Shown here piece after piece: positions 6,677-63,295 of a DNA stretch of 64,000 bases (position 1 is the stretch's first letter; every line of letters starts with the position of its first letter). The position numbers and the translations under genes are program-made. Location of the stretch: positions 89,083 through 153,082 of the forward strand of contig JAKLGJ010000003.1 of assembly GCA_022710715.1 (NCBI GenBank), read 5' to 3'. The notes below the pieces were generated by a model. That model was given only the letters and a program-made list of their open reading frames with translations. It did no database searches and was not told the origin of the DNA. The stretch is from Candidatus Omnitrophota bacterium. Lineage in GTDB: Bacteria; Omnitrophota; Gorgyraeia; Gygaellales; Profunditerraquicolaceae.

Positions 6677-6686
6677 CGTCCGCTCC

Positions 6687-15173: not shown

Positions 15174-15444
15174 AGTCTCTTCCTTTCGTTTAATGTTGTT
15201 ATCCACCAGGGTTCTATAGTAGCTTAAAGACAAATAAAGTAAAGTGGCCGTTTCCACTTTTTATTGACTTTCTTCCACTTGAATTATTGGCGTATCCGAC
15301 TGCGGTTGAGTGGGATTTAAACCTGCTGAAAACGCTTTCAATATGACAATTGTAGCATAAAATCAGCCAAAAAACAAACTTATTTATAAACTTTTTACTA
15401 ACCACCGGCTTAGCCTGAATTATTCGAAATTCTAACCATCACCC

Positions 15445-15473: not shown

Positions 15474-15509
15474 TGCTTTATGAAAGCGTTTTCAAACCAA
15501 AGGACAAAA

Positions 15510-31546: not shown

Positions 31547-31564
31547 GCTTTCTCCTGATCGCTG

Positions 31565-31597
31565 AAAATAAAAAACCCAAGGCAGCGATACCTTGGG
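31565..31597 (-). terminator. Strong intrinsic terminator 8 nt upstream of the RBS of giant gene A1, a putative transcription attenuator
   Basis: Minus-strand CCCAAGG-TATCGCTG-CCTTGGG followed by TTTTTTATTTT. A second GC hairpin CCCGCTGCCAAATGCAGCGGG lies at 31631-31651, further upstream. Confidence 0.6.
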
Positions 31598-31796
31598 TGA
31601 AAAAAACGTTCCCTTTGGTAACGCAGCCTCCCGCTGCATTTGGCAGCGGGACTGTCGCTTTGCGCCCCCCGATTACTCGAGGTTTGCCTTTATCAGTAGA
31701 ACTCTTCTTCTACTTACCTATTATTACTATTATATTTCCAACATATTAAGTATAGCACATTTTTGCTAAATTTCAACCTTACCAATTGCACAATTA

Positions 31797-31923
31797 GCAG
31801 ACGTTTTCCCCATCCGCATGTGGCACATTGACTTACAAAGATATTGTTCCGCACCGCCAAATTGACGCATAAATAATATTTTTGTAACCAATTGCCGCAC
31901 ATGCGGATGGGGAAAGCGTCTGC
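31797..31923. repeat. 127-nt intergenic inverted-repeat element, copy A. The arms are about 29 nt (GCAGACG(C)TTTCCCCATCCGCATGTGGCA) around an AT-rich core.
   Basis: It starts 2 nt after the stop codon of giant gene A2. The other copies, also exactly 127 nt, are at 42787-42913 and 62687-62813. The cores of A and B are identical (ATTGACGCATAAATAATATTTTTG). Confidence 0.75.
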
Positions 31924-31925
31924 GG

Positions 31926-40900: not shown

Positions 40901-42644
40901 CAAAGAAGCCTTCGCCCTTGCTATTGAGTATCTGCGACTGGGAAACAGTGTACGTCCGGTTATCCGCTCCGGTAACTTTCACCGCGCCCGGCGTTTCGCC
41001 GGGAGCCGTCTGATAAAATACCTGGCCGTCTATTTCGATGCTTTCCGGGTTGTGGAATGCGTGCTCGGCCTGCAGCGTCGGCAATGGATCCCCCGTCACC
41101 AGAGAAGTGAACCTGGCCACGCCGTGCTGAATGACTGCCAGCGGCGAGGTCTTTCCGGACACGACATCATCCCAGGTGTAATCCGCGGTATTGACCGGCG
41201 TGCCGGAAGTCAATTTTCCCTGATCGTCGACGGTATACATCATTTTCTTGTCGTCATTGGCGCCGTCGATTACCATGATCGTATTCCCGTAAACCTCGAC
41301 TCCGGCATTGGCGGGCAGAAGCATGGAATTATTCCCGACCGTAATTGTTTGCGTCGCTGCCCGGCTATCGGATTCTGTTGAAGGATCCGGCGCGCTATCA
41401 CGTGCAGTAAGCGCTAAAAGACCTGACACTATCGATGTGGAACCGGCATGAGCGCCCGGGAGGCTTTTATCAGCGCTGCCGGCAAGCCCGGCGCATAAAG
41501 AAAGACCGGCTGCGCCTAACCCTGTAACCGGGGCTGCAGTCAACGCTGCAGTCAAAAGGCTGCCGCCCTGCGATAAAGCATTCTCCACCGCGCTTGTTGA
41601 TCCGGATGCGGAATCCCGGGACGCTGCCCCCGCGTTCAGACCGGTCCAGGAATTAACCGACTGCGTCAGCGCGCCGGACAACGAGCTTACTGTGGAACTC
41701 GCGGAAGTGGCGACAGCGTTCAAGCCGGCGGTAACGGCATTAGCTGCGCCGCCAAGGAAGTTTCCCGCTGCCTGCGCTGCGCCGTTTACCGCACCCCCGA
41801 TCGCGCCCAGGATATCCAGGCCGGCGCCGGAGATCTCCTGCATCTGCTCGACAGAAAGCTGCACGCCAACCGGCTGATCGCAAGTCAATGCGAACCCGGT
41901 CCATTCTTTTTCGAATATTTCGCGGGACAGGCGGGTAACGTGGTTATTATCAGTGTAGGTCACGAACGAGTCATTTGCGCCGATCAGAGTCACATAATGA
42001 CCCTGTCCGTTACCCAGGTCGAGATGCACAATGGCCGGATTATTCAGCGCGGTCAGCTGATCATAGGTCATCTGGGTCCCGTACATGTCCAGGCCGTATT
42101 GCCGGGCGACGTTCTGAATACCGAACATGCTGGTCTGGCCGTTCTGGGTATACGGTTCAAGATTCCGCGCAAGGATAGAAGAATCTACGCCGGGCAGGAA
42201 CAGGGTCAACGATTGCACCGCGCAATTATACTGCACGGGACTAAACGAAGCGACTGCCGCGGAATTGGAAAAACCCGGTGTGGAAAAGGCCGGCTGCAGG
42301 GAAGAAACCTGCGGAGCGACAAAACTCCGCAGAGATGGCGGGCTGAAACTGCTTAACGCGCTGGCTGCCGGTTGGGTGAAGCTCGGGCTGGAGAACGAAT
42401 TCGCCGGCTGGGAAAGAGTAAGGCTGGCAGGCTTGGAGAAACTGATCCCCGTTGATTGCAACTTGAGCCCGGAAGATGAAGTTGAGGTTGATGACGAAGT
42501 TAAAGTCGATGATGTGCCGCAAGACGGAGCGCTGAAATCGAAAGCCTGGGCGGGAATGGTTTGATTGGAGATGAAGCAAACGAGAATAAAAATACTAACA
42601 CAACGAAAACCGACTCGCTGTATTCCGTGGCTTTGAGGGAGCAT
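31926..42644 (-). CDS. Giant secreted multidomain protein A2 (3572 aa), a paralogue of A1. It has an N-terminal C39-like papain-fold peptidase domain, the family A core, and duplicated modules.
   Basis: Signal peptide RVGFRCVSIFILVCFISNQTIPAQA. A Ser-rich low-complexity linker follows. The C39-like region (NCAVQSLTLFL...PAIVHLDLGNGQGHYVTL) is at about 41890-42255. The core shared with A1 is at about 38900-40375 (ENLPWYQDMALSAASSPKDTGLWLG). Tandem modules of about 120-180 aa (DGTMVMIDKRFGADHFGRNENAVYAAD and DGTLVIIDGRFEADHAGRGENAVYARD) are at about 37150-38750. Two modules carrying conserved GGHG and LxSCSTG motifs are at about 36170-37115 and 32480-32990. Confidence 0.8.
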   Translation of the reverse strand: MLPQSHGIQRVGFRCVSIFILVCFISNQTIPAQAFDFSAPSCGTSSTLTSSSTSTSSSGLKLQSTGISFSKPASLTLSQPANSFSSPSFTQPAASALSSFSPPSLRSFVAPQVSSLQPAFSTPGFSNSAAVASFSPVQYNCAVQSLTLFLPGVDSSILARNLEPYTQNGQTSMFGIQNVARQYGLDMYGTQMTYDQLTALNNPAIVHLDLGNGQGHYVTLIGANDSFVTYTDNNHVTRLSREIFEKEWTGFALTCDQPVGVQLSVEQMQEISGAGLDILGAIGGAVNGAAQAAGNFLGGAANAVTAGLNAVATSASSTVSSLSGALTQSVNSWTGLNAGAASRDSASGSTSAVENALSQGGSLLTAALTAAPVTGLGAAGLSLCAGLAGSADKSLPGAHAGSTSIVSGLLALTARDSAPDPSTESDSRAATQTITVGNNSMLLPANAGVEVYGNTIMVIDGANDDKKMMYTVDDQGKLTSGTPVNTADYTWDDVVSGKTSPLAVIQHGVARFTSLVTGDPLPTLQAEHAFHNPESIEIDGQVFYQTAPGETPGAVKVTGADNRTYTVSQSQILNSKGEGFFDLHDVPLLDSVSSWLYGEEEKVTYTENDQVKTGYVHGKELRPVSESIVDMPTQSSTSTIRIGCGIDQNGSMTYWYESPKIEEASLQEQCNEWNKLEDGSVEKTLKGEEILAQADSQSAVRTGVNGALGAFIPAALIIGKIMPGAADTREQQAQLQQVQDYLKAHPEAYQTQEYRNVAGQNIASGWINGLPAPLGINDLRAIPSAFVATDKWDAYLGQGPQAQQVTSASAGQDEKIYFTTDEMREKLPATQDAMSSLTRTEQTYALLDAVSTGAMIVTALTPWPGDEEAAVGSKIAQIGSKAAKLGQVAKLGAAEEALTVAVRSESLLSKAGTLSGCIADTQKGFNAARFVQGAAKSGAVWAGVSAASDIAYSAISGEEIKWDQVARSAKQGFGSGFLFSGVIQGAGIFSKATRLGELANTVQAAPKNYGTLTRWGANTLKIVENYAEVPGKIASDSLTGATTFIGVGPLFHAVGTGLESLGESFLFDENGELNLHWDPHLAQMKGPRGEENLPWYQDMALSAASSPKDTGLWLGTATEIFGATSGVLDPGGEGLVSRWAANTGKYGYLRGSLKTALGTDVRLATSEAAIKTDAELTAAELAARPNWLLDTPRTLDGLYNHVDNAVFFSLLTSGTDAALNNDWTRDNLGITAQDAGILSWIPFMMVPRYTGTVKQNPSYNPLYTSSRIEHDLFHQQNKIGEVVNSIGAELKAQLRSDNKYDFRALIDAAGGTIKTATGSLHIEDDGTMVMIDKRFGADHFGRNENAVYAADIKGARQQLAESGAWKEFSVKEGIATEQDIEQGVLGGKMQDWLNDKTLSQEAREIRQQTAAKLEDEFYTNSLWAKFSFSLKDAVVGSQIGINDLASGLNKAKNDIDAKIAELRKARDAFGEDSREYKKIYEDILDMAETAVTTIGVPELTREMIEEKFGHEFGDVFEVAIKPGISDGQAAELTELNGKGSSKKNRVKPYGMSHAVDKHVLARNEMSAQDMLAKTVEAIERGDCWMVPGQDKVKFMTDFGDGKQVLVSVGANFNPAKNGQSIITVFKAAIDRNNVDDLSRNIGKEFVKVERLPGLDDLEGMVNGLADTLLDPAISSGNNGGSTRAQHEAYHEAGKIAQTIDTLGNEIGAGKRSDGRFDLRARVEKAGGRIQTEHGELRIEADGTLVIIDGRFEADHAGRGENAVYARDEAKARHELAELNAWKQFAKEKGIVTDRDIADGKLGDKLREWMNDKEAGAERQREIAQKAQEFHNEGLRAEGKEPAKKKAVVVLPQSDWNGAFAGSYDHVQALLDRGYDVAHKVVKDMDEAIDFIKQSTLVQKADLLLLGGHGGKQGMEFTDWMDAGRDKVSQIFKKTYAAVQSLEQSLQRLVRENPDLVSADQEKEIEALVGELNSVAGAKWYLEGGVQEFISAVEKTLAGIETQSWEQRLKEIEAPAAQARITQESAMDKLLAQRRVIEDAHREHDAALSEGKSQAEIDAKWQRVLDGYAALKPLEADYFAASESYQAIYARQQSIIQALSALRQMKTDYPVLAEGMKEYLYKTAQMSLDFNNAERLSQISDRLADDALVVLKSCSTGSTAGEGENLADKISAAVSRKVLAPHHDSASFRLKFDDKGAVEDIEYTYHEEPVQESVHFRPSEELKRMLPFILGNVYERDISRDSGTIGNGYVAEKRSADCEAAPGDADFIISSDGPAANLPTVPDKEAQAQGSVLTRIKDAVGGLIGRAQQEPNRQNAFTSILMNNPKSLYDWMHTDTPWGALVEKGWRAQVPYAELMQGVRALVIGDTNHGNNGLQRGFARQMQALKDAGATHAIFEIQSDLKVEDADVIAMRTRLSHRFKQQIKAAQDAGLDVVFMDMPEDMRKKEWTAEEEAVNRGKYMGEYISDFLEKNPGAKAVAITGYAHINDPAQIPQSLQDHGIEHRIVAGISEGQKGWDAFSARSGFSGITRISNSVIASTEPGERSGYIDLKDQGFDVEGIIHFPRNEVEHSGKSGEKNAEMTADSTSLTEIGKESGGQLPSASVRVQYEEKVNDDWRTWRNENEKKIFDFVVNNFDGLNNNQKAQLAMKLYAYAFSRGKRGMEGSVVDIQFVAGRDPYFLIKTVDPGSRPYDPAKDYSSVTEEYEISLEHLQDIFDVKNLFGEIPDNLLEGREIDVQVSSPEAIPKLLPLIVQQKDPAKIKVSQDYDFGPMGVRVQDKNWGWLPMISENEFVFTPVEEAFRKAEGLVKHFNLYSSGAMSYGLGLSASPNLMHDRPWEHIGDSALDRFLNAQEWLGAKAENWVKDRTSSAYRANQILWEIGKIHRPFTEGILKSRIDLRSINRQECESMLEELDRQIDLIGSSIKELDRVAASPLQVVRKAENKEKGQKALEQAKETYNQLLDIRDYIRLQKDLIPENSGRRELQAADDAQNEVDINLAAGGAEKATHTAVNEHVKANLPADLLADKTNIKNYPLAEGCGAAARVIPIEGLLEKTGQLAHIGLGRVYGEAVIYVDAEHAANQRVLEHELYEINAWQEKAKELRQEYSFASESVAEQMREWIRYCPEDAIAFDRETHAKAPAIDDLLPAPEKKPGSEAARERTFEEHYPEELGMSAQSKAELENISRHIPDIVEQMRESMKDAKLSLENVAQLQEIGPYLKENADIILNSCSTGAVTPGDNVNLATEVSKALGDRRTFGAQHSSSSMRIDFSDKGAIDKVNYAVHYDGVMEVRMEGAPVKRDGECFVAGGTAARETIEKDAKTKIAVILTPSSDHNGAFKERDLEEQLKSSGYEVRTKEVNSLTQAVEWIKNSNEPGSIDLLVIGGHGTPRSLQLGNGNDPFAAYRDIRKTVVGPVMKFLAENPGMYSPEQRNEMLRYVRALTKFANSWFFYGNGPEVIGHYGNEMSASFKQTSFKLDKENSERNRIVLTPEQWQAHPLAASLGVYRQRYAALDKELQAEGACAPQTELAFRTVSELTAKAEKSGLNAAEREKLLSACRELYQSLDSMPGYGDLNL

Positions 42645-42786
42645 GAGTATTCCTCATATACTATGCTCCTCCTTATTTGTGAGACCCCTTCCCATGAGAG
42701 ATTCTCCCATAGGTACTACAAGTGTACCCCAAAAACCCCTCATTTCAATACTTCTACGACCTACTTTCGCAACCGCTTTCAAACCC

Positions 42787-42913
42787 GCAGACGCTTTCCC
42801 CATCCGCATGTAGCACAAAGATTTACAAAAATATTATTTGGCACCGCTAAATTGACGCATAAATAATATTTTTGCAACCGACTGCGGCACATGCGGATGG
42901 GGAAAGCGTCTGC
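42787..42913. repeat. 127-nt intergenic inverted-repeat element, copy B
   Basis: It ends 2 nt before the stop codon of giant gene B1 and lies upstream of the A2 start. Its arms and core match copy A. Confidence 0.75.
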
Positions 42914-42915
42914 GA

Positions 42916-45900
42916 TTACAATAAGGCTATGAGTTCTTTCAGGTCTGATGGAGTTGAGATAGCGCGCTCTTCTTCCATCTCCAGGATCGCGCTCACGCAA
43001 TCCACCACCTGCTTTTTCTGCTTCAAGGCATCCTGCCGGCCTGCACACGCCACCAGCAATTCTTTCATTTCCCGGCAGGGCATCTCGCCTTTAGCCATGG
43101 TTTTGCGGATATCCGCCCAGCGTTGATCCAATTCCGCCAGGCTCAATCCGGCCAGTGCTCCGGCAGCGGCTGCGTCAATCGGCGCGACAGCCGGCAGCGA
43201 CTGCACGGGCAGCGCCCGCATATCGATACCGCCGAGATCCGCAGGCGCCTGGGCATTCTCAACCGGCAATCCGCCATTCAGCAGGGCTTTCTCAACAGCC
43301 AACCGGACATACTCGTCCAGGATCTCTTCTCTGGACTTGCCGCTGTCGATCAGCGCCACCAGCATGGGGAAGAACGGCTGATTCCAACTAAGTCCGGCAA
43401 GTTCGCGCATCACGAACTCACTACGCCGCCCATAATAAGCCAGCGGAGCGATCATCTTATAAATACTATACTCTTCAATGCCCGCAGCTTTTCCCTGAAG
43501 CATCAGTTCGTTCGCAGCCTGCAGGCCGCCTTCCACCTTGATCAACTTACCGAGATGATTTTCTTCACGTTTATTCAACGCCTGTTCGAATGCGGCGATA
43601 GCGAAGAAACGTTCTTTTCCGCTATCCCCGACCAGTTGTTGATTGACCACATCGGCATTGAAATCGTTGCAAAGCGCCTCATACACCACCGTAGACATTG
43701 CTTCGGAAGCCAGGTTAACCTCGGGATGATTCTTAGCTGCGCTGAACACCGCCACCATCATCCTGGCCGTTTCCGCGCGACGGCGCGTACCGCTCAAACG
43801 GAAGATATTGGCGTCAATATTCAATGACAGCGGATACGCCATCCCGGGCTTGAATCCCGCTTCTGTCATCAACGGGATCAATTGTACCAATTCAGCGCTG
43901 AATGCTTCGGCCTCCCGGACGGAAAAACTCCGTTCCAGCGTGCCCCTGAAAATGCTCTCCAGAATGTTATTAGTCATCACTGCATTGATGCCATTTCTCC
44001 GCATGACCGGCAGCAATTTGATGACCGCCTCTCGCATTTGCGCGCCTTCTTCAGGATGCATAGCCTCAACAGCGACGACGATTTCATTGATATCATTCGG
44101 CCCCAACCCCGCTCCGGCCAGTTGCAGAATCAGCCGGCCGTTTTTCTTCAATACCCCGGCGCTCTGTTTCAAACCCTTAAGCCCCTCAAAAACAGACTTG
44201 AATACGGCGTACGAACTCTCCTTCTTGCCGCCGTCAGTACTTTCCGTTGTTGCAACCTGCCGCTTCCAATCTACAGCTGCAAGAACTTTGCATAGATCCA
44301 GCTCGTAGCCGGCCATCGAAACCACATCATCGACCAATCCACTGGTCTTAGCTTCCTGCACTTCAGCCTCATCGGGACCGGCTGCCACCATGAATTTCAG
44401 CGGCCGCCGCTCTCTGCCATTGGCCCGATCAAGCTTGTCGAGCTGGCGGACAAACCAGCTTCCGTTTTCCTTGATCAACTTCGGCATCAACTCATCGAAC
44501 TTTTCCCAAAATTCGTCTTCGCGCATCGCCCGGGTGAACTCCGCTTCGTTGCGATCGAGCCCGAACCGTTCGAACTGCTTCCACGTCCCGCCCATCGGGA
44601 AATCGTTATCCGAGATGACGATATCGATGCCGCCGCGCTCCTGCGTCACCGCCTGATACAGGCCGAATGCGGTATAAGCGTCGCCGGCGACAAAGATATT
44701 TTCCGGTTTCACTCCGATCCCCGCCAGTAATTGCTCGATACCTATCTGCCAGTCGATTTCGTCTATCACCACCAGAACTTTCTTATCCCGGATCTGCTCG
44801 CCGATCTTCTCCGCCACCAACGGCACCAGCACAGTTTCGACCAGAGGCCGGTACATATAGGAAGTAGTCTTTCTCGATTGCTCGACAGCAGCGATCGCTT
44901 TATCGAGAGTAACCGGCACGGTTGCCCCGCTATGAGATAAGCGTCTTGCCTCTCCGGTCAACCTGTCTGCTCCGGCGGCAAAAGCTGTTTTGATCCCGCT
45001 AACGATCTTCTCGCCTGTCGACATTTCCTCCTCGAAAACAAACCCGGCAGCTTCAGCCAGGTCCCGGACTACCATGGGAATGGTAATCTCCATTCTCGGT
45101 TTGCTGACTATCGCCGCGATCATTCCCCTGGACTTGGCCGCCTCGGCACCCGACTCTTCCGGATCGGCGCCGGACGTCCAGATGATCGGGATATCGATCC
45201 CCTGCCCTTTGTTCACCTGCTGAATCTGATCAGCCAGCCACAAGCCATCTTTCTCCAGATGCTCGGCGCTGAACGGCATGCTGTGGTCGGTGCTGACCAG
45301 ATCGAATGCGCGGCCCTGCGCGATCGCTTCCCGGTACTTCTCCAGTGCTTCCACCGGATTGCCCGCTGTTTCTATATCGGAAAAACCCAGCGAACGGTAC
45401 ATAATGGAAACGAGTTCACGCATTGCTTTTTCATCATCCACCACCAGGATACGCTTATCGCGCGCGTATTCCCGGACATCCTTTTTGACCAGTTCAATCA
45501 AACTAAAACTCAATCTATCGTATTCACGCTGATTGCGCGTTTGCATGGCGAGCGTATACGCATCTTTTATCTCCTTCGCGCGCGCGCCGCCGTCGCCGGG
45601 AATTTCCGCCACCGCTAATCCGTCCAGTGCCGACTGTCCTGCCGCGAATTCTTCCAAAACGTTCTGACGCTGGAACAGCTTATGTTCCAGGCTCTTGATC
45701 TTCGCTTTGCTTAATTTCATCCTTCTAGCCAATCCTGCGTCGCGGACTCCGCCCCTCATCCGCTGCACTTCCATATCCGCCAGACGCTCTTTTTCTTTAA
45801 GAAGGATCTGCTGCCATCTGGCATAGTTCTTCCCGCCGTCCAAAGAACCGACCAGGAACACGTCGTCGGCAGCCGGAATAACCCGCTCATTGCCCTTGTA

Positions 45901-53172: not shown

Positions 53173-53228
53173 CTTTTACTCCTTTTTAAAGTTTCAATTA
53201 AGTGAAAATAAAAAACGCCGCGATCTTT

Positions 53229-53251
53229 TTAGAACCGTGGCGTAATTCTAA
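53229..53251. promoter_or_regulatory. Palindromic site TTAGAA-CCGTGGCGTAA-TTCTAA, about 60 nt upstream of the B1 start codon
   Basis: Its counterpart upstream of B2 at 62565-62589 reads TTAAGAA-CCGTGGCGTAA-TTCTTAA. The spacer is identical and the arms carry compensatory changes. Confidence 0.5.
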
Positions 53252-53324
53252 CAGAAAATTTGTTCCTGTGTTTGAAAACGCTTTCAGCTTTTTATATAAA
53301 TAAGTATACCCTATAAAAAGCTAA

Positions 53325-53377
53325 TTTTCAAGTGGTGGGCGCTCCCTTATCCCCTTGTCGCACAAGGCTTAAGGGAA
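53325..53377 (-). terminator. GC-rich hairpin just downstream of the B2 stop, a putative terminator or 3' stabiliser
   Basis: GGTGGGCG...CCTTGTCGCACAAGG...CGCCCACC, an imperfect dyad. On the minus strand it is followed by a moderately T-rich run (TTGAAAATTAGCTTTTTATAGG). Confidence 0.4.
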
Positions 53378-53396
53378 ACGCCCACCTGTCTCCCAT

Positions 53397-56300
53397 TTAT
53401 GATATTGCCAGTTGGATAATTTCCTTCATTTCACCGGCAGTAGGAAGCGCACGCTCCTCTTCCATTTCCAGTATCTGCTTGATGAACAATACCGCTGTAT
53501 GCATCTGCTGCGTTGCATCTGCGCGGGCATTACATACCGCGACGAATTCTTTCAGCTCCCGGTACGGCATGGAGCCGGATTTCACTTTCTCCTGAATGTT
53601 CAACCATTTGGCGTCTAGTTCGGCCAGCGGCATCTTCATCGCCTGCGGCATTGACTGCAGGATCTGCGCCGGATTGACCGCGCCGATCACCGCCTGCGAC
53701 TGGATCGGCAGAGCCCGGAAATCCACGCCGCCGGTGTTATCAGGCGTCTTCTTGGCAGCGGCAGCGTCCGCTACTGCCTGCGCCGGGCCGGATTTCAGCA
53801 GCGATTTAAGCTTTTCAATGATCGCCGTAAATCTGCCGCCGTCATTTTCTCCCAACTCATTGAACAAAACCTTTTTAGCAGGTTCATTCAACTTGTCGAT
53901 ATTTTCTTCGATCAGCGCATACACAAAAGGCTGGTCTCCGGCCGCTTCCAATCCTCTTTCGGCGATTATCTTCTCTTCCGCCTTTGCGATATGCACTAAA
54001 GCTTCGGCCGTCTCGTCAAGATCATACCGGCCGTCTTCGAGTATACGCCAGAGAGCTCTGGCTTTGAGAATATCCTTCCCGTTATCGTTATAGTCCCAAA
54101 GAAGTTCCGCAATTTCCTGAACATTATTTTTCGTTTTTATCCCGGCCTGATCCATCACCAGCAGCAAAGCGACTTGAGCTTTGATGCTGAACGGGGCAAT
54201 TTTACCCAACGCTGTTATCGCTTCAGAAACTCTCTTTACTTCGCCCGATTCAGGAATATAATCCTGCTCTCTGCTGAAACGGGTCAAAAGCATCGGCACG
54301 TACAAAGTGAGACCAAGCTTCTCCTGGACGATTTTACGGCTGACGTCCTGACTGTCTGTTCTGATTATCCTGCTATTGATCAAACCTAAGGTCACTCTGG
54401 CGGGTTCGCTTGAGGCAAACTCGTCAAGTCCGGTCACGGCGTCGATACGCTGTTTCAATGCCCCGTCGGCCTCGATGTCAATGAACAGACGGAGCATCCC
54501 GATGGTGAAAATGATCTTATTCTTCACATATTCTCTGGCAAAAGGATCTTTATTTTCGATCCCTTCCATCAGATTTGCCAGATACTGCGCATACTGTTTG
54601 TTTTCCAGCATATAATTCATATCTTCAATTTCGGCAATGAGAGGCTCGCCGACTAACGTGCGAAGCTTGATCGAGATATTTTCGTTAACCAGCGGATCTT
54701 TTCCGCCGTCGAGGTCGTCCAGGTCCAATCTGGCAATAGCATTACGGTACACAGCTTGCACTGCTTCGTAATTACTGCTGCTATTTTCTATGACGTCGAT
54801 TTCCTCTCTGATGTTTCGCATCTGGCCCGCAGTCCTGTTCGCGAGCGACATACTGCCATACATCGGCATGTTTCGCAAAGACCGATAATTCGCCCGCAGT
54901 TTTTCAGTTTTCTTATTTGCATCATCAAGGGCGCCGTCTATATTCTTAATCATCTGTGTGAAGAAAATCTTCAATCCCGCGCTGTCCCTGCTTTCTACAA
55001 ATTGTCTTACTTCCCTCAAATCGACCGTGCCGTTTGACCCCTCTTTCATTTCCTCAACGATTTCGGCCTTGAATCGATCGATCTTCAGGTCATGCGCCAG
55101 CGCATCCGCGAAGGCCTTGAGCGCTGCATTGGTCTCAAGAGGATTGTTGGATTCGGCAAAGAATGCATCGTCTTCCACTATGCCCGCGTTGATCAATCTT
55201 ACCAGTTCTTCAGCAACCGCCTCGCGGATTCTCTGCGCATCCCGCGCCTCATCCGGATCATTGATCAACTGGTAGAACGTTGACAACGCCGGACCATTGA
55301 TCGACTTTTCACTTCTGAATATCGTTCCCAAAGCCCGCACTATGGTTTCCCTTAAAGAAACGTGGGCGGCCGATTTTGAACCCAACAACAAAGCTGTGAT
55401 CATTTCAGCTTTCCGTTGGTCGTTAGCTTTCACCAAAGTAACCATATCATTAACCGTCTCGGTCAAATCGGATATCGTACTATTCTTGCTGGCGAATCTA
55501 GTCAGCGCTATGCTTGAATTCAATGCTAAAGAATCGATAACAGCCGGATTCACGGCTTTCAACGTTTCGCGCAAACCTGTCAGAAAAGCAATGTTATTCA
55601 TTAACCCTTCATAAACAACTGCCTTTTCAAGAATGGAATAATCATTGTTTGCTACGGCGATCATCGTTAGCGCTTCCGCAGCAATAGCTGTTTCCCCCTG
55701 CGAGCTGCGATCAAAGTTCGCGATGATGAAATCAGCTGCCGGGAGATAACCCAATTTACCGAGTTGCTGAATAATTTCAATCTTTTCTTCGAAATCCATC
55801 TTTCCATAAGCATTGAACTGCTTGGTGAGCTCCTGGAACCTTGCCATTTGGACCCGCCGCTCTTTGGTCAACCCGCCGTCAGAGACCTCGCCATTGATCT
55901 CGTCAAGTTCAGCCAGGGCCAGTTCGGCCTGCTTGCGCACTGCCATGGACTCCTGGTCATTTTCGTTGTAATTATTATTCAGAACATCATGCAGAACATC
56001 TCTGGCGTACTGCGTGTTGATCCGTTTTAACGCCCAGATCGCTTCCCGCTTGACTTCGAGAGACGCGATAGCGCCTTTACTCAAGATCGCCGCCAGGCTC
56101 TGAACAGCCGCCACAGGCTCGAACCGGAACAGATCAGCCACAGCCCGGATCGCGGTAATGCGCGTTCTTTCCGCTCTGGGATCCGCCCTGTAGGTCTCTC
56201 CCTGTCTCACCTGCATCGCCGCAATCACCGCCCGCAGAACATCAACATTGCCGACTTCAGTCAGCTTCTGGATCGCTGCCCTGCGCAACCCCGTAGACTT

Positions 56301-59300
56301 GTTCTGCAGAACATCCAGCATCGCGTACATAACTATTTCAATATCACCGCTGTAGTCCTTTAAGATGTTAACGATATTAAGCTTATCGTGAAATTCTCCT
56401 AATGTTGCATTGCGCTGATTAAGCTCCTGATTATAGAATCTGATCTCGACATCCTGGACCTTCGTTCCTCCGTCAAAAACGTCCGCGTCCTGTTCAATCG
56501 CCGAAGCTAAAATCGTGAATAAAGCAGCAACTGCAGCTTCTTTGGCTGCTTCATTTTCGTTATTACTGCCTATTATCCTGACCATCGACATGGCTTCATC
56601 TAGATTACTATCCACTGCGGTCTTTTCACAGGCTCGCGTGACCAGGGAAAAAGCGCCCCAGGTGTAATCTGTCCTCCAATGGCTCCAGGCAATCAAACCT
56701 ATACCCATAAAAGCAAACTCTGGTTCAACCGGCCCCATCCGGGTATACAGATCGGCAAACTCCGAGAGGCCCATTTTAAGTTCGGGAGTCACTTCCACCT
56801 TGGACTTCCCCGAGGCAACATCCCGGAGAAATACTGCAAACTCCCTGGCTTCTTTCTGCACATCGCCTATCGTGCCTTCATCAGCCGCTCTAATATCGTC
56901 AATGCTTAAATATCTAAAATAAGTCTTCGAATTCTGCTTTTTTAAATTCTCGATTATCGTTTTATTGGTAGTGCGCAACGCATAGTCCGCATTATCAGAC
57001 AGTCGTCTGATTGCCAGATCAAGAACTCTGTCGTCTGCGATATCTCCCACAAAAGCATCGTAATTATTCTCGATCAGCTTGATATCATCGCGGAACATCC
57101 TGGTGATGCCTGCGTAGTGTGACGACGCTTGTCCATCTCCTTGAGCGATGAACTGAATAATCCGCAGGCCTCTTTCCATCTGGGGTATCAATTCCCTCAC
57201 GACCTTAGCGCTGCCGCCGTCGGCTACGGCTTCAGGCTGCACGGGTAAGCGAACGGTCTCCAGATCCCTGGCGAAACGATTGAGGTTTTTAATATTTTCA
57301 TTGAGCGTAGCTATACGCGGTTCAAACGTTCTCACCTGCTCCAACTGATCGTTTCGCTGATGAATATAGGGCGCCCACTCTTTAACCTGTTTATCAGACG
57401 GTCTTTCGCCACGCCAAGCAGCTTCAATACTATCGGCAATACGCTTATTCTCCTGGGCCGACAATAACAGTTGCTGTTTGTGCTGAATCGTGAGATCCAA
57501 TTCATCCTGCAAAGTCTGAATAAGCTCGTCTACGAAATTGATAAGCGCCTTCTGGTTCTTGATTCCTTTCAATTCGGCACGCTGATCGGCGGTAAATTCG
57601 ACGGCCTCTTCGATCCGGCCGGCGAATTTCTGCACCTCGCTCTTAGCGTCGAAGATCAACCCGAATTCAGCTGCTTTAAGGATGTCCAACGTTAAATCCT
57701 GCAACGCCAGATCCCCGTGTTTAACCGCAATGCTCTTTATAATTTCTTCTTTATCAGACGGGAAATATACATTCAAACCGTTGGTCCAGGCCAGATAACG
57801 GATATGCTGCTCAATATCCGCATCTTTATCCTTCACCCGTATCGTCTGGAGATTAGGCTTAACCGCCCTTCCTTCCCACAACGAGAGCTCCCAGGCATAC
57901 TTACCGGTCAACAAATCCGGCAACTCGCGAAAATAATACGGAGATTCCCAATCATGCTTGCCGCCGTCATTGAGCTCCGAAACATGCACGACTTCGCCTG
58001 TGTTTCCCACACTTCCGTAGTATACCTGCCCTTCGAGATTATTCTTGGGTAAACCCAGCTGGTTGGCGCGATCCATATATATTGCCGCCAGCATACTTGC
58101 TTCTTGATTAACACTCGAACTGAAAAGCGCGTCCTTAACGCCCATTCCAAAGACTTCTTCGAACGTTCCTTGAATTGTTATCTGCACATCCTGGGCTACT
58201 TCGTGAAAATAGTTGGTTTCTTTGACCGTAAACGTTTTGCCTTTCAGATTCGCCGGCTTGCTCGCATTCTCTCTGCCTTTACCGAATTTGGCAAATTCAA
58301 CCGCGCTGTCCTCCTTAGCCCAGGACAGCGGTTTGCTGATATCATCTTCCGAGACCATATCCGGCTTACCGAACACCTTGAACTCCACCGGCTCGGTGCT
58401 TTTCGCTGCATCTAAAGTCAGTTGGGGAATCGAAGTCCACGCATCTTCAATAGTATCGCCCATCAGCCGTATTGACTGAATAGTATCTTTATAGATCGGC
58501 GCGAACTCGTCGCTGTCAAGATCCTTGACATACAGCCAGAACGGAAAATAATCGTTGTTCAAATATTCGAATTTACAATCCCACTCGACGCCGTCCTTGA
58601 AAACGACAGTGATCTTTTGCCCCTTGAAAGGCTCAACCAGTTTAGCCTGGACGGCCAATCCGAAATTCTCCATTGACAGCCCTGTCCGCAATCCCGATTG
58701 CAACTCCTGGACGGAAGGCAAGCCGGCTTTTTTGACCAGGCGGTCAAGGAAAAACCGGTACATTTTATTGCTTAGTACGATCGCGATCACACCCGCGCCC
58801 ATTGCCGCTGCGAAAGCCAAAGCGAATCCAAACGGCATAAGCGCCGCGCCAAGCACTATAATCGTCGCCGTAGAAACGGCCGCCGAATACTTGATCGCTT
58901 TATCTTTCAGATCTGCGAGTTGAGAATCCGAAAGCTTATCCTTCAAATTCCCGCCGTCTCCGGTTTCCATTCCGTCATTCCTCAGCGAGGTTTCCGGCGC
59001 ATAATTATCTATTATTTTGTCTGTTACCCCCAACAATCCGGTAAATACAACCCCACCCAGGACAATTCCCATCGCATATTGAGCCAAGCTAATATTCGGG
59101 TTAGCGATCATCATATTACCGGCCAAGAATGAGCCAAGGATCATCCGTCCCGGGAAAGTCAACACCAAATAGTCGGTAATCTGACGCACTATTTCCTTAC
59201 TTACTATTTTAGTCGCCATCCATATCAATGCGTCATATGCGAGGCCGCCCACGATACTGCCCATCGCATAGTGCGCGAGAGTATTTGTCGGATCAGTGAT

Positions 59301-62300
59301 CATCGATAGGCTCATAAGGGTCGAACCAACCAGAAAACGTCCGGAGTGAGTAACGGTTAGAAAATCAAAAAGACTCCGGTATACTTCTTTGCTTTTGCGA
59401 TTGCCGCCGTCCGGCGAGCCGACCAGGAACACGTCGTCGGCAGCAGGAATCACCCGCTCATTGCCCTTGTGCTGGCCGTTGGGGTCAAGGCCGTCTTTTC
59501 CCACAATGATCAGCCACAGCCCGATGTCGTTTTTGTCGCGATCGACTATCACTGCAGTGTCGTAAACTTCTCCACCGTTGAGCTCCGCCTGCATCCACCT
59601 GTACCCGCTCATGGTCAGGACGCCCAGATTTTTCAGTGCCTTAAGCAATTCAAAACGGATTTCCTGCCGCGTGTCGGCGTTCACATCCTCATCCGTATAC
59701 ACGTTGATATATATATTGTCGTTTTTCTTAAGCTTCGACCAATCGATCGTTTGATCCTGGCCGGCGTACTCCTGGGCTCTTTTCACCGAGATAACCGGGT
59801 TCTTGATCCCTTTTGCGGTCAGCACCCTCTCCAGTTCGTCGATCACGTTGACTTTGTTCGATTCAAGCAGCGGAGACATAAACTGTTTAGGCAGTGTGAA
59901 CGACTCGCGGTTAAGAATGGCGCTTGTCTCTTGCAGCGTCAACTGTGCTGACCCTTCTAAATCAAGCGGATCAAGTTTAAAATATTTAGGATCTGCATAA
60001 GCGATAAATCCAAGATATCGTCCCACCAGAGTATAAATATTTCTGTCATTAGCGAGGGACGCCATGATTTCCATTCCCGCAAGAATAGCCTTGGCTTTCT
60101 TTGCACTGGCTTGCGTTTCAAAAAGTCCTTCCTCACGCAGCATCTTCTCTGCCGAAGCGACCTTGTTTGATGAATCCCTAACCCGATGAGCGCAAGTACT
60201 CACAATTTGAGCAGCACTATTAAATTCATCTTCATTTAGTTCATGCTCAGTCAAAACTTTAACGATTGCCTGTATCTGTTTTTCGATCTGCTTTCCATAA
60301 GAGCTTAGACTATCCCTATGCACGTCCAAGTGCGATACGCTAGCCAAGTAGTCAGACACAAACTTAGCTCTCTGCGCCGAAACAACAGTCAGCCGGGCTT
60401 CCTTCTCCTCCTCTTCAGCAGCCTGATTGGGAGCAAAATAATACTCCTCTTTGAGCATGCTCATGATATCAGGCAATTTTTGATTTATTTTGTGGTGAAC
60501 ATACCTGGCTGCAAGAAAGACTGCAGCGATCCCGACAGAGACACCCACCATCACCGCCGCAGAGACGCCCAATAATCCCATAGTCATTAAAGCCGGAAAG
60601 GCAACAAAGCTGAACCCAAAAATGCTGGTTATCGGGGAAGTCCTCGTGCCCATGATATACATCAACAAATCGATATCCGTCCGATTCAACATCTTGTTCC
60701 TGGACAAGACTTCTCTGACCGTACCGCGGTTCAATTCCTTTCCGGGAATACTTCTCAACTCCTTGATCACCTCGCCGAACGGCCGCGAATTCTTGGCCAG
60801 GATTGGATCAATGGTCAATTGCGTCCCTATTTCGCGGACAAAGGTATTCAATACCAGATACCTTTTAGCCGATAAAAATAATAAAAAACCGCCTATCAGA
60901 AACATGGGTACCCCTGCTATCAGAGTACCGCTTATAGAAAGGAAAGCGCCCACCCCAAGAATCATCGTAGCCTGACCCATTCCAAGCGCCGATTGTTTCC
61001 GAGCTTCGTCGAACAATGTTTTTAAGGCAGTGAGGCTGCGCGCGCTGTTCAATCCTCTCTCCTGCAATTCAAATACGGTTTTGTATACTTGATTCGCTGA
61101 ATATGACTGCGCTTCAGGCTTGATCTCGTTGAACTTCTCGAAAATCTGCTGATTCTCCGCATCTGCTTTCCCGCCGTCCGGCCCCTTCTCATCCTGTGGG
61201 GGAGCCTTAAATTCTTCGGCGACCCGGTCTCTGGGCAAAGCTGCGCCGCCGGCTTTCAGAGGCATCTTCGACACGGCAAGTGCGAGTTCAGCTTCGAGCC
61301 CATCATCAATAATCCTGCCGTCCGGCTTCACTTTGATCAAACCTTCTTCGAAGCGGGTGCCGGCAGGAATTTCTACGGTCGGACGGGAGATCGCTTCGTA
61401 ATTCTGCGCGCCGCCGGCCTTCAATGTGAAAGCTGACGGATCTATATCGGCAAACCTGATGCCGCCGCTGAAGTACTGGCGGATAATCATGCCCGTGGGA
61501 GTTGAAACAGTCTCGCTGATATTGTATTCGCCCTTCTCGAATGATCTCTTGTAATCATTGAAATACGTGTCCCTGGACCAGGCTTTGGCGCTGGTCAAGC
61601 CGGTCAGGTCGCGCTGGTCGATCTTTGATGCGGCGCTGCCTTCCTGGCCGCGGTATTTCTCCTTGAACCACTGCGCCAGAACCAGAGAATAATACACCTG
61701 GCGCAATGCGGCATACTTTTTCGACGAGTTGACTTCGCGGGTAAGTTTCGGAAGGATCTCTTTACGGATGATCGCGGAAGAATATTCGTTGAGCTGCTTG
61801 ATCTTGGGATCGTTGGACTGGAACAACGCGTTGTTGGGAAGCCAATCCTGCTCCAGCATGACTTTCAAAGTGGCTTTAAAAATGTAAGCGCTGGCAGGAG
61901 TTTCGCGCACCAGGATCTCGCCCGGAACAATCCAGGGGCGGGTGATGGTGGGAATGGTAATGTCCTGACGGCCGAAGATCTCTTCGGCTTTGGAATAAAG
62001 TTTGTTCCAGTAATTCTTCCCCTCTTTGGTCTTGGGGGAAGTAAAAGCAGCCATGTCTTTCTTCAGCTGCAGATCGGCAGCAAGCAGAATACGGCCGACT
62101 TCGGTTCTCTCCAGCCAGGGGTCGATAACCTGATCTTTGGCATCCGGGCGCAAATTAACCCAGAAAGTGGAATTCGGCAGAGCGATCCCTATATTGAAAT
62201 AGGAAACCAGTTCTTTAGTGGTTAGTTGGACCTGCTGCGGCTTGATCTTGCGCGCATCGCCTTTGTCCAGAAGCAGGTTGAAATCCTGGCTTTTCTGGTC

Positions 62301-62468
62301 AAAGCTGATGCTGCGCAACTGCACCGGGCGGAATTTGTCCGGGGCGACATAGCCGTTGATGTATGTCGGAATGTTGAATTGCGGAGCGACTTGAGCGAAA
62401 CCTGATTGTTCAAGAACCAGACAGAAAACTACTGCGAATGCGACAATGCGTTTTACTAATTTGAACAT
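53397..62468 (-). CDS. Giant modular membrane/surface protein B2, about 3020 aa (3036 aa from the track's start at 62507). It is a paralogue of B1.
   Basis: I prefer the ATG at 62468, which has an AAGGAG RBS 7 nt upstream and gives MFKLVKRIVAFAVVFCLVLEQSGFA, aligning with the B1 N-terminus. The family B N-terminal domain is at about 61420-62468. The central shared block is at about 59400-61180 (TM cluster plus LTLQETSAILN...FLVGSPDGG), with near-identical DNA stretches to B1, for example 46441-46470 versus 60458-60487. It has multiple internal TM clusters. HEAT/ARM-like alpha-helical repeats occupy the C-terminal third. The family B C-terminal domain is at 53397-53715. Confidence 0.8.
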   Translation of the reverse strand: MFKLVKRIVAFAVVFCLVLEQSGFAQVAPQFNIPTYINGYVAPDKFRPVQLRSISFDQKSQDFNLLLDKGDARKIKPQQVQLTTKELVSYFNIGIALPNSTFWVNLRPDAKDQVIDPWLERTEVGRILLAADLQLKKDMAAFTSPKTKEGKNYWNKLYSKAEEIFGRQDITIPTITRPWIVPGEILVRETPASAYIFKATLKVMLEQDWLPNNALFQSNDPKIKQLNEYSSAIIRKEILPKLTREVNSSKKYAALRQVYYSLVLAQWFKEKYRGQEGSAASKIDQRDLTGLTSAKAWSRDTYFNDYKRSFEKGEYNISETVSTPTGMIIRQYFSGGIRFADIDPSAFTLKAGGAQNYEAISRPTVEIPAGTRFEEGLIKVKPDGRIIDDGLEAELALAVSKMPLKAGGAALPRDRVAEEFKAPPQDEKGPDGGKADAENQQIFEKFNEIKPEAQSYSANQVYKTVFELQERGLNSARSLTALKTLFDEARKQSALGMGQATMILGVGAFLSISGTLIAGVPMFLIGGFLLFLSAKRYLVLNTFVREIGTQLTIDPILAKNSRPFGEVIKELRSIPGKELNRGTVREVLSRNKMLNRTDIDLLMYIMGTRTSPITSIFGFSFVAFPALMTMGLLGVSAAVMVGVSVGIAAVFLAARYVHHKINQKLPDIMSMLKEEYYFAPNQAAEEEEKEARLTVVSAQRAKFVSDYLASVSHLDVHRDSLSSYGKQIEKQIQAIVKVLTEHELNEDEFNSAAQIVSTCAHRVRDSSNKVASAEKMLREEGLFETQASAKKAKAILAGMEIMASLANDRNIYTLVGRYLGFIAYADPKYFKLDPLDLEGSAQLTLQETSAILNRESFTLPKQFMSPLLESNKVNVIDELERVLTAKGIKNPVISVKRAQEYAGQDQTIDWSKLKKNDNIYINVYTDEDVNADTRQEIRFELLKALKNLGVLTMSGYRWMQAELNGGEVYDTAVIVDRDKNDIGLWLIIVGKDGLDPNGQHKGNERVIPAADDVFLVGSPDGGNRKSKEVYRSLFDFLTVTHSGRFLVGSTLMSLSMITDPTNTLAHYAMGSIVGGLAYDALIWMATKIVSKEIVRQITDYLVLTFPGRMILGSFLAGNMMIANPNISLAQYAMGIVLGGVVFTGLLGVTDKIIDNYAPETSLRNDGMETGDGGNLKDKLSDSQLADLKDKAIKYSAAVSTATIIVLGAALMPFGFALAFAAAMGAGVIAIVLSNKMYRFFLDRLVKKAGLPSVQELQSGLRTGLSMENFGLAVQAKLVEPFKGQKITVVFKDGVEWDCKFEYLNNDYFPFWLYVKDLDSDEFAPIYKDTIQSIRLMGDTIEDAWTSIPQLTLDAAKSTEPVEFKVFGKPDMVSEDDISKPLSWAKEDSAVEFAKFGKGRENASKPANLKGKTFTVKETNYFHEVAQDVQITIQGTFEEVFGMGVKDALFSSSVNQEASMLAAIYMDRANQLGLPKNNLEGQVYYGSVGNTGEVVHVSELNDGGKHDWESPYYFRELPDLLTGKYAWELSLWEGRAVKPNLQTIRVKDKDADIEQHIRYLAWTNGLNVYFPSDKEEIIKSIAVKHGDLALQDLTLDILKAAEFGLIFDAKSEVQKFAGRIEEAVEFTADQRAELKGIKNQKALINFVDELIQTLQDELDLTIQHKQQLLLSAQENKRIADSIEAAWRGERPSDKQVKEWAPYIHQRNDQLEQVRTFEPRIATLNENIKNLNRFARDLETVRLPVQPEAVADGGSAKVVRELIPQMERGLRIIQFIAQGDGQASSHYAGITRMFRDDIKLIENNYDAFVGDIADDRVLDLAIRRLSDNADYALRTTNKTIIENLKKQNSKTYFRYLSIDDIRAADEGTIGDVQKEAREFAVFLRDVASGKSKVEVTPELKMGLSEFADLYTRMGPVEPEFAFMGIGLIAWSHWRTDYTWGAFSLVTRACEKTAVDSNLDEAMSMVRIIGSNNENEAAKEAAVAALFTILASAIEQDADVFDGGTKVQDVEIRFYNQELNQRNATLGEFHDKLNIVNILKDYSGDIEIVMYAMLDVLQNKSTGLRRAAIQKLTEVGNVDVLRAVIAAMQVRQGETYRADPRAERTRITAIRAVADLFRFEPVAAVQSLAAILSKGAIASLEVKREAIWALKRINTQYARDVLHDVLNNNYNENDQESMAVRKQAELALAELDEINGEVSDGGLTKERRVQMARFQELTKQFNAYGKMDFEEKIEIIQQLGKLGYLPAADFIIANFDRSSQGETAIAAEALTMIAVANNDYSILEKAVVYEGLMNNIAFLTGLRETLKAVNPAVIDSLALNSSIALTRFASKNSTISDLTETVNDMVTLVKANDQRKAEMITALLLGSKSAAHVSLRETIVRALGTIFRSEKSINGPALSTFYQLINDPDEARDAQRIREAVAEELVRLINAGIVEDDAFFAESNNPLETNAALKAFADALAHDLKIDRFKAEIVEEMKEGSNGTVDLREVRQFVESRDSAGLKIFFTQMIKNIDGALDDANKKTEKLRANYRSLRNMPMYGSMSLANRTAGQMRNIREEIDVIENSSSNYEAVQAVYRNAIARLDLDDLDGGKDPLVNENISIKLRTLVGEPLIAEIEDMNYMLENKQYAQYLANLMEGIENKDPFAREYVKNKIIFTIGMLRLFIDIEADGALKQRIDAVTGLDEFASSEPARVTLGLINSRIIRTDSQDVSRKIVQEKLGLTLYVPMLLTRFSREQDYIPESGEVKRVSEAITALGKIAPFSIKAQVALLLVMDQAGIKTKNNVQEIAELLWDYNDNGKDILKARALWRILEDGRYDLDETAEALVHIAKAEEKIIAERGLEAAGDQPFVYALIEENIDKLNEPAKKVLFNELGENDGGRFTAIIEKLKSLLKSGPAQAVADAAAAKKTPDNTGGVDFRALPIQSQAVIGAVNPAQILQSMPQAMKMPLAELDAKWLNIQEKVKSGSMPYRELKEFVAVCNARADATQQMHTAVLFIKQILEMEEERALPTAGEMKEIIQLAIS

Positions 62469-62564
62469 GGGAGACTCCTTCTCTTTGTCTCCCCTCCCCC
62501 ACAACATTGTGTTTTAAAAAAAACCCGGTTTTTAAAAGACTCTTTGCTTGCGCAATAGAGATCG

Positions 62565-62589
62565 ATTAAGAACCGTGGCGTAATTCTTA
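62565..62589. promoter_or_regulatory. Palindromic site TTAAGAA-CCGTGGCGTAA-TTCTTAA upstream of B2
   Basis: See 53229-53251. It has the same position relative to the start codon. Confidence 0.5.
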
Positions 62590-62686
62590 ATTGACTAACT
62601 AACTCCTGATTGTACTAACAAGTATACGGATTACTGGACTGATTACAAGACGAAATATCAATATTATTGAAACCGCTTTCAAAACA

Positions 62687-62813
62687 GCAGACGCTTTCCT
62701 CATCCCAATGCGGCACAATGCATTACAATAATATTCTATATACGCCAATTCTTAAGCCGGTAATAATATCATTGCAACCTATTGCCGCATTTAAAGATGG
62801 GGAAAGCGTCTGC
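62687..62813. repeat. 127-nt intergenic inverted-repeat element, copy C (more diverged core)
   Basis: The outer arms GCAGACGCTTTCC / GGGGAAAGCGTCTGC are conserved. It overlaps the stop codon of the deaminase gene by 1 nt and lies upstream of B2. Confidence 0.65.
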
Positions 62814-63295
62814 TAATAGAGTTGTTTGTGGGGGAGGCGGTGCCAGTCGGAGAAAAGCTGACGGCATTCTTTGAGGAGGGAACTGCGCTTGAGGCAGATC
62901 GAGCTTTTGCCCAGCGACTTCAACCTGGCGCTGGAGACTTTGAATTCGTTGAAGCCAATCTTACTGGCATCGGCGATATTCGTGCCGTACACGATCTTGC
63001 CGATCCTGGCCCAATGAATCGCGGCAAAGCACATCGGGCAGGGTTCGGTGGTGGTGTACATCACGCAATTTGATAAATCGAACGAACCGGCCAGCTTTGA
63101 AGCTTTGCGGATAGCGTTGATCTCGGCATGGCAGGTTGCGTCGTTCTTGAGCACGGTGTTGCGCGCCACAGCCAGCACCCGGCCGCGTTTCACAATGCAG
63201 GCGCCGAACGGCCCACCTTCCATGGTCTTCAGATTCTTGCGCGCTTCTTTGATCGCCAGAAGCATGAAGTGCTCATCGTTTTTCTTCATGCTCAT
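62813..63295 (-). CDS. CMP/dCMP-type zinc-dependent nucleoside deaminase (TadA/guanine-deaminase-like), 160 aa
   Basis: CHAEINAI (His-Ala-Glu) and PCPMCFAAI (Cys-x-x-Cys) zinc-binding motifs. The size is typical of the TadA/GuaD family. Confidence 0.7.
   Translation of the reverse strand: MSMKKNDEHFMLLAIKEARKNLKTMEGGPFGACIVKRGRVLAVARNTVLKNDATCHAEINAIRKASKLAGSFDLSNCVMYTTTEPCPMCFAAIHWARIGKIVYGTNIADASKIGFNEFKVSSARLKSLGKSSICLKRSSLLKECRQLFSDWHRLPHKQLY

Follow-up and report, generated by a model that had tools for sequence, protein, structure and literature searches.

Giant genes and palindromic sites in the window

Omnitrophota are uncultured, possibly predatory nanobacteria known for their giant genes. 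A 64-kb stretch of DNA from a Candidatus Omnitrophota bacterium (contig JAKLGJ010000003.1), referred to below as the window, carries a tandem head-to-tail array of such genes encoding proteins of about 3,000-4,300 amino acids (aa). Two of them, B1 and B2, which are located on the minus strand, are preceded by short palindromic sites that are the subject of this work. All of the evidence presented here is computational. The genes of this region are as follows:

18632-31639, minus strand: giant gene A1, 4335 aa
31926-42644, minus strand: giant gene A2, 3572 aa
42916-53172, minus strand: giant gene B1, 3418 aa
53397-62468, minus strand: giant gene B2, 3023 aa
62813-63295, minus strand: tadA-like deaminase gene, 160 aa, with dCMP_cyt_deam_1 and MafB19-deam domains, between B3 and B2
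Giant gene B3: only the 3' end within the window; the start is on locus L001, with the true ATG at 1346

On the plus strand, the two sites read TTAGAA-CCGTGGCGTAA-TTCTAA at 53229-53251 and TTAAGAA-CCGTGGCGTAA-TTCTTAA at 62566-62589, as described in the initial annotation of this DNA. Both were found in four independent assemblies of the same organism (ENA, JGI, Logan) and are therefore not an assembly artefact. The identical spacer of 11 nucleotides (nt) reported there was confirmed and proved to be part of a longer identity of 19 nt (AGAATTACGCCACGGTTCT on the gene strand), which sits within an ungapped 28-nt repeat with 89% identity (repeat family D15). The presence of a common 19-mer in two spacers of roughly 250 nt is far above chance; for the 11-mer alone, with one mismatch allowed, two copies were found versus 1.2 expected, which is not beyond chance. 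The co-variation of the arms was likewise borne out, since both arms change jointly with their complementarity kept. When two flanking U.G pairs are included, the helices comprise 8 bp in B1 (TTAGAATT/GGTTCTAA) and 10 bp in B2 (ATTAAGAATT/GGTTCTTAAT). The sites had also been placed about 60 nt upstream of both genes, at the same distance from the start codon. This does not hold, because the distance is 56 nt to the B1 ATG (53172) and 97 nt to the B2 ATG (62468).

The palindromes overlap predicted leader terminators

Each giant gene has its own sigma-70-like promoter of the form TTGAAA/TTGTAA-N16-17-TATACT, and the homologous genes in other genomes show the same TTGAAA-N16-17-TAtAcT layout upstream. 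The -10 box precedes both palindromes, which are located at about +45 (B1) and about +25 (B2) from the inferred transcription start site and are therefore expected to be transcribed as part of the 5' leader. The promoters, hairpins and terminators of the two leaders are located as follows:

53303-53331, minus strand: B1 promoter TTGAAA-N17-TATACT, 10/12 matches, putative transcription start near 53296
62621-62648, minus strand: B2 promoter TTGTAA-N16-TATACT, putative transcription start near 62614
53229-53251, minus strand: B1 leader hairpin (site 1), with 5' arm TTAGAATT at 53251-53244, loop ACGCCAC at 53243-53237 and 3' arm GGTTCTAA at 53236-53229
62565-62591, minus strand: B2 leader hairpin (site 2 plus 1-2 nt), with 5' arm ATTAAGAATT at 62591-62582, loop ACGCCAC at 62581-62575 and 3' arm GGTTCTTAAT at 62574-62565
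53205-53243, minus strand: predicted B1 leader intrinsic terminator, with stem ACGCC.ACGG.UC....GAUCG.CGGCGU at 53243-53215, then U-tract UUUUUUAUUUU to 53205 (RNAfold minimum free energy (MFE) and centroid structures)
62516-62579, minus strand: predicted B2 leader intrinsic terminator, a long hairpin from GCCACGGUUCUUAA via an inner GCAA-loop hairpin to UUAAaAACCGGGU (62579-62523), then U8 (62523-62516)

Folded alone, the 8-bp B1 hairpin with its two U.G pairs has a predicted energy of -3.4 to -4.1 kcal/mol, and the 10-bp B2 hairpin one of -5.3 to -6.0 kcal/mol (shuffle p = 0.0045 for the complementarity of the B2 arms). In RNAfold predictions for the B1, B2 and B3 leaders, (A)CGCCACGG forms the 5' base of a hairpin directly followed by a tract of U6-8. 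Reading the sites as an RNA stem with a conserved loop, as had been suggested, overlooked that the loop and the 3' arm make up the 5' half of a predicted intrinsic terminator. The sequence ACGCCACGGUUC is common to the B1 terminator and the B1 hairpin. In the B2 leader the MFE and centroid structures coincide (z = -2.6), and the B3 leader (L001) folds into GCCACGG...CGUGG followed by U7 (z = -4.4). The terminator-like structures are found 19-47 nt before the start codons of the three genes (32-47 nt in B1 and B2). A simple terminator scanner did not pick up the B1, B2 and B3 leader terminators because their loops and bulges exceed its limits.

Since the loop and 3' arm of the palindrome are the 5' arm of the terminator, the two folds exclude each other. 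The segment GGUUCU(U)AA is used by both helices in constrained folds of B1, B2, L005, L011, L101, L103 and L109, and by sequence in L006 and L015. In the seven leaders with a valid comparison, the terminator state was 6-12 kcal/mol more stable than the hairpin-enforced state, with values of -14.5 versus -4.5 kcal/mol for B1, -22.0 versus -15.4 for B2 and -20.0 versus -10.6 for L101. L006 was left out of this comparison, as its sequence ends before its terminator. The greater stability of the terminator fold implies that termination would be the default and that readthrough would require something to hold the hairpin or GCCACGG in place. An energy gap of this kind resembles the usual design of factor-dependent antitermination.

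Conservation of the predicted terminator and of the small hairpin

Relatives of the conserved N-terminal domain shared by B1, B2 and B3 number 384 in GTDB genomes, almost all of them carrying the label Candidatus Omnitrophota. For comparison we took the best 80 of the 384 GTDB loci and the best 120 of 218 protein matches, and the comparative set consisted of the regions upstream of 126 homologous genes (200 nt per leader). A further homologue search for leaders yielded one additional leader of type I (L139), the class of B1 and B2, and two duplicates.

Thirteen further relatives have a predicted GCCACGG-based hairpin followed by U6-8 in RNAfold, which corresponds to an intrinsic terminator structure. 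All 15 of 15 aligned leaders share the same stem base, GCCACG/CGUGG, and the upper stems have unrelated sequences with pairing kept, for example CUGAUUGAUC/GAUCGAUCGG, CUCCGAUGGG/CCCAUCGGAU and UUAUUGACCC/GGGUCAGUAA. Therefore, the hairpin and U-tract are conserved as a structure and GCCACGG is conserved as a sequence. With MAFFT and RNAalifold only the invariant base of the type I terminators could be aligned, as the upper stems differ in length, and covariation was judged from single-sequence folds. The heptamer itself occurs in 29 of the 126 leaders versus 0.96 expected from the remainder of the same loci (P about 1e-32). A sense-strand search of about 740 kb for the architecture CCACG...CGTGG with a T-run gave 19 matches, each of them in a leader of the giant-gene family, including that of a second tandem family gene in L034. 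A copy of GCCACGG within the first codons of A2 (42625-42631) was attributed to chance, since the 64 kb contain six minus-strand copies versus about four expected.

Nine leaders (B1, B2, L005, L006, L011, L015, L101, L103 and L109) carry an upstream arm with complementarity to GGUUCUUAA; they come from at least five genomes and have unalignable flanks. As MAFFT misaligned the short hairpin, a script was used to tabulate its pairs, starting at the loop. Pairing is kept at helix positions 2-10 in 8-9 of the nine leaders (89-100%). Changes on both sides were found at four positions, namely U.G to A-U (L015), A-U to U-A (B1), U-A to C-G (L006) and A-U to U-A (B1 and L015), and several one-sided changes yield G.U pairs in the arm helix. 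The U.G and G.U pairs exist on the gene strand only and correspond to A.C mismatches on the other strand. The conserved G of AAGAA is opposite a C in 9/9 leaders. (G/A)CCAC is present in every loop, and the loop lengths of 5-9 nt place the perfect half-sites 9-13 nt apart. Shuffling of the upstream 24 nt gave p = 0-0.03 in the five leaders tested. The covariation, the sense-only G.U pairs and the variable spacing fit an RNA hairpin and speak against a rigid dimeric operator. The upstream arm is a subfamily feature, and B3 and most type I relatives keep the terminator alone.

A proposed terminator/antiterminator switch

The leader position, the terminator fold, the exclusivity of the two folds, the conservation and covariation seen between genomes and the association with one gene family alone were all obtained by computation. 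From these sequence and folding data we interpret the palindrome, with moderate confidence, as a 5' leader RNA hairpin that would take part in a terminator/antiterminator switch, and not as a DNA operator. In the proposed mechanism, the weak 8-10 bp hairpin would form first in the leader RNA, with (A)CGCCAC exposed in the loop. Together, loop and 3' arm (GCCACGGUUCUUAA) would double as the 5' half of the much stronger terminator. If the hairpin is not stabilised, the 3' half of the terminator would displace it and RNA polymerase would stop in the U-tract before the 9-10 kb gene. An effector holding the hairpin or GCCACGG would block the terminator and RNA polymerase would read on; candidate types of effector are an RNA-binding protein, a small ligand or a trans RNA. 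Actual termination, the antiterminator role of the hairpin and the existence of an effector are thus the predicted parts of this mechanism.

Several observations weigh against this interpretation. The nine leaders that provide the covariation are a small set, and several of them are paralogues or near-identical (L101 and L109), which leaves few independent events. The upstream arm is present in only 9 of roughly 25 type I leaders, and its absence from B3 in the same genome and from L009, L012 and L013 indicates that it is not essential to the family; in the latter three, only 8 nt separate the end of the -10 box from GCCACGG, which leaves no room to transcribe an arm. The small hairpin is A/U-rich and of low stability (-3 to -9 kcal/mol), the fold of the B1 leader is not significant against shuffles (z = -1.6), and the 3' arm of the B1 and B2 terminators departs from the family CGUGG. 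The transcription start sites, termination and readthrough are all inferred, and some doubt falls on the B1 start site from the position of a promoter-associated box described below, which in B1 lies downstream of the assigned promoter. Finally, a search of 64 kb of the genome (about 73 kb with L001) found no candidate effector gene in the window.

Alternative explanations

It is conceivable, if rather unlikely, that the upstream arm is an accessory or by-product of the terminator. Here the A-rich 5' arm would pair with the U-tract, or would be a relic of a duplicated terminator 3' arm; it would have no regulatory role, and the terminator would be constitutive or leaky. Pairing of the 5' arm with the U-tract is indeed found in the MFE folds of B2, L005, L011, L101 and L109, the arm is absent from most family members, and between A/U-rich arms some complementarity comes cheaply. 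However, the G of AAGAA pairs with the C of UUCUU in all nine leaders and a C pairs with G in L006, neither of which suits a U-tract, and the L005 helix reaches 12 bp through sequence unrelated to it. The low shuffle probabilities in the five leaders and the retention of the arms while the flanks diverged completely also count against this explanation.

Recruitment of Nus factors seems improbable. According to this explanation, GGUUCUUAA would be a boxA-like site for NusB/S10 that produces termination-resistant RNA polymerase for the 10-kb genes, with the leader terminator as a checkpoint. Processive antitermination is a plausible need of very long genes, and GCUCUUAA of L103 presumably matches the boxA of lambda nutL. 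Like the boxA elements of nut and rrn signals, GGUUCUUAA stands ahead of very long transcription units, and GGUUCUUAA(C)A resembles the gamma-proteobacterial consensus GYTCTTTAANA (PMC5725501). However, GGUUCUUAA is one U short of that consensus and is paired in stems in both predicted states. It is also poorly conserved, being absent from B3, from L007, L014, L018, L024 and L118, and from many type I leaders, which have GGACUGAUU, GGCACUUGA and other sequences instead. The invariant part of the leaders is GCCACGG, not the boxA-like sequence.

A DNA operator was one of the two functions considered in the initial annotation, the other being a stem in the leader RNA. In this explanation a dimeric transcription factor would bind TTAAGAA-N-TTCTTAA downstream of the promoter as a roadblock repressor. 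The perfect 6-7 bp palindromes of B1 and B2 do form an inverted repeat close to a promoter, as operators of dimeric repressors do. Against this stand the location in the transcribed region, a half-site spacing that ranges from 9 to 13 nt over the nine homologues of the site, and the strand asymmetry of the G.U positions. In addition, the half-sites vary (TCAAGAA, TTAGGAA, TTAAGAG) around an invariant spacer core, which is the reverse of the operator pattern. A search for TTARGAA-N11-TTCYTAA, as had been recommended, returned only the two window sites and none elsewhere in 741 kb of related DNA, and relaxed 7-bp versions of the palindrome were found in leaders only where they enclose GCCAC or ACCACG. 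The absence of the motif upstream of B3, which had been named beforehand as a result that would speak against the proposal, was observed: the B3 leader lacks the arms and keeps GCCACGG, which counts against a family-wide operator. Of the two functions, the RNA stem is thus favoured by the transcribed position, the sense-strand-only pairing, the variable spacing and the greatest conservation in what had been called the spacer, and the operator is very improbable.

A much better candidate for an operator at the same promoters is a 12-bp palindromic box, GAAANCGNTTTC, which occurs in 59/129 homologous leaders (most commonly as GAAAGCGCTTTC); the background frequency is 10 copies in 638 kb. Its position is 19-20 nt upstream of the -35 TTG in 51 of 57 measured cases. 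From its sequence and fixed position, the box looks like a phylum-wide promoter-associated operator or activator site. The copies in the window are:

53274-53285, strand not assigned: GAAANCGNTTTC box of B1, downstream of the -10 box, which is atypical
62669-62680, strand not assigned: GAAANCGNTTTC box of B2, 20 nt upstream of the B2 -35 element
15328-15339 and 15482-15493: GAAANCGNTTTC boxes in the TpsB upstream region
42769-42780: relaxed copy of the GAAANCGNTTTC box

Assigning the B1 promoter to a position 20-22 nt downstream of the GAAANCGNTTTC box instead would move the palindrome into the promoter spacer; this was considered and rejected because the hexamers there are poor (TGTTAG and TAAAAA).

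Least probable is an unregulated hairpin with a U-tract that acts as a 5' stabiliser of a very long mRNA or as the body of a leader-derived small RNA with a GCCAC loop seed: the hairpin is at the extreme 5' end of the predicted transcript in L009, L012 and L013 and, with its U-tract and the GCCAC shown in the loop, resembles the 3' end of a small RNA, but neither a U-tract nor an invariant 7-mer is required of a stabiliser, no complementary target was identified for GCCACGG, and the hairpins of B1 and B2 are 25-45 nt from the predicted 5' end.

Comparison with known regulatory RNAs

Ribonucleic antiterminator (RAT) elements are leader hairpins bound by antiterminators of the BglG/SacY/LicT type. 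Like them, the B1/B2 element is a short, imperfectly palindromic leader hairpin with its 3' part overlapping the 5' arm of a terminator, and it is much weaker than the terminator, so that a bound factor would be needed for readthrough. In contrast to RAT elements, it has no sequence similarity to RAT, its conserved feature is the GCCAC loop, and many members of the GCCACGG family have no hairpin at all and carry only GCCACGG and the terminator. A Pfam scan of the 18 neighbouring open reading frames in the 64 kb found transporters, a two-partner secretion pair, a PilZ protein and the deaminase, and no CAT-PRD or other antiterminator gene.

The second type of system with a comparable layout is the platform formed by a cyclic di-GMP (c-di-GMP)-I riboswitch and a terminator, and one example is present in the same array:

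31613-31697, minus strand: c-di-GMP-I-GGC riboswitch (RF03167) in the leader of A1, 60.2 bits, E = 1e-11

By eye, the A1 riboswitch is followed by a hairpin and a U-tract at a leader position equivalent to that of the B1/B2 element, so that attenuation control has a precedent within the array. The shared features are the order of promoter, conserved RNA, hairpin with U-tract, ribosome-binding site and giant gene, an invariant core across species, and a larger structured domain before the terminator in the more distant (type II) relatives. The B1/B2 element differs in being only 23-27 nt, which is small for an aptamer, and in having no match in Rfam 15. At gathering score, the window and 20 related loci gave no relevant match in that database (only rRNA and tRNA in the leaders of relatives), and at E <= 10 nothing relevant was found over the sites in both intergenic regions or in one type II leader. 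By analogy, the element would work like RAT-type antitermination or a small riboswitch expression platform, and it appears to fall outside every family tested.

A wider family of GCCACGG leaders

In the more distant relatives, type II leaders are longer. They contain a hairpin that has a UGGAGR loop and is paired at its base with the GCC of GCCACG; ACGG comes next, and then a predicted terminator of the form GCCGGAUUGAC...GGUCAGUCCGGC with a U-tract. RNAalifold analysis of nine sequences revealed compensatory changes at 11 predicted pairs, and from its sequence and predicted fold the type II leader resembles a riboswitch-like orphan motif, for which Rfam 15 gave no match. A likeness of its terminator hairpin to domain D5 of group II introns was dismissed as chance (21 bits against a cut-off of 65.5 bits, with no intron context). 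The leaders concerned are:

L020, L042, L087, L091, L104, L129, L029, L052 and L040: type II leaders, about 100 nt before the start codons

In L046, L066 and L071, GCCACGG is located in the terminator loop. The retention of GCCACGG in differing structural settings points to direct recognition of the sequence. Another type of leader found in the same gene family is a short 5' untranslated region with GGCYGAURARCC (GGCTGATAAACC or GGCCGATGAGCC). These leaders (45/129) and those with GCCRCG (43/129) overlap in one case and are mutually exclusive. Examples are:

L021, L022, L043, L072, L084 and L095-L098: GGCYGAURARCC leaders

A ACUUUAAAAAGGAG-like sequence, which may be a conserved A-rich ribosome-binding context, was observed just before the start codons of many members of the gene family, in the window (53181-53195) and in leaders L008, L010, L034, L118 and L024.

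The sequence comparisons suggest that the palindrome is part of an undescribed leader family built on the invariant GCCACGG. A broader proposal, which we put forward tentatively and consider possible but doubtful, is that GCCACGG is the hallmark of a new cis-regulatory RNA family that extends over the phylum Omnitrophota and is dedicated to a single family of giant secreted proteins, in which an effector would recognise GCCACGG and license passage of the leader terminator into the 9-13 kb gene. Candidates for such an effector would be a small molecule that binds the type II domain or a dedicated RNA-binding antiterminator, and the B1/B2 palindrome would be the minimal form of the switch.

Other features of the window

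A large hairpin is present 3' of each giant gene. An imperfect inverted repeat of roughly 130 nt occurs in three copies with 68-89% identity (31797-31928, 42787-42918 and 62687-62818), each of which starts immediately at a stop codon (those of A2, B1 and the deaminase gene). These repeats may be 3' structures or terminators, and their matches to miRNA-precursor models in Rfam are spurious. A link between the B1/B2 hairpins and TadA was considered from the tadA-like gene just upstream of B2 and the presence of UACG, a TadA target motif, in the B1 and B2 loops; it was rejected, as UACG is not conserved in the other seven hairpins.

A two-partner secretion pair on the minus strand (8629-15257) consists of a TpsB of the ShlB/FhaC type and a TpsA-like protein of 1595 aa that carries a TPS domain, with the gene for a PilZ-domain protein (6326-6730) downstream. 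The 3418-aa B1 protein has an embedded response-regulator receiver domain at residues 2575-2692 (PF00072, E = 2.7e-8). By eye its N-terminus resembles a signal peptide, which is odd beside an internal receiver domain.

Start codons and implications for giant genes

For the B3 product, the called start is ATG 1277, within the predicted terminator (overshoot L001:1277-1345); the start at 1346 is preceded by a GGAGG Shine-Dalgarno sequence. Similarly, the longest B2 open reading frame begins at 62507 (overshoot 62469-62507), and the start supported by a Shine-Dalgarno sequence is 62468. As the first in-frame ATG of A1 (31639) falls inside the aptamer, the real start of this gene is probably about 31 codons downstream, near 31546. 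Gene callers therefore over-extend giant genes through their leaders: the called B3 start and the first in-frame ATGs of A1 and B2 fall within leader RNA.

The full-text accounts of Omnitrophota giant genes that were consulted make no mention of promoters, terminators, leaders or riboswitches, and no report on the control of these genes is known. If the proposed switch is correct, with a c-di-GMP riboswitch on the adjacent giant gene A1, the decision to transcribe a 10-kb gene would be made within the first 100 nt, and the GCCACGG hairpin would provide a defined RNA bait in the search for the effector.

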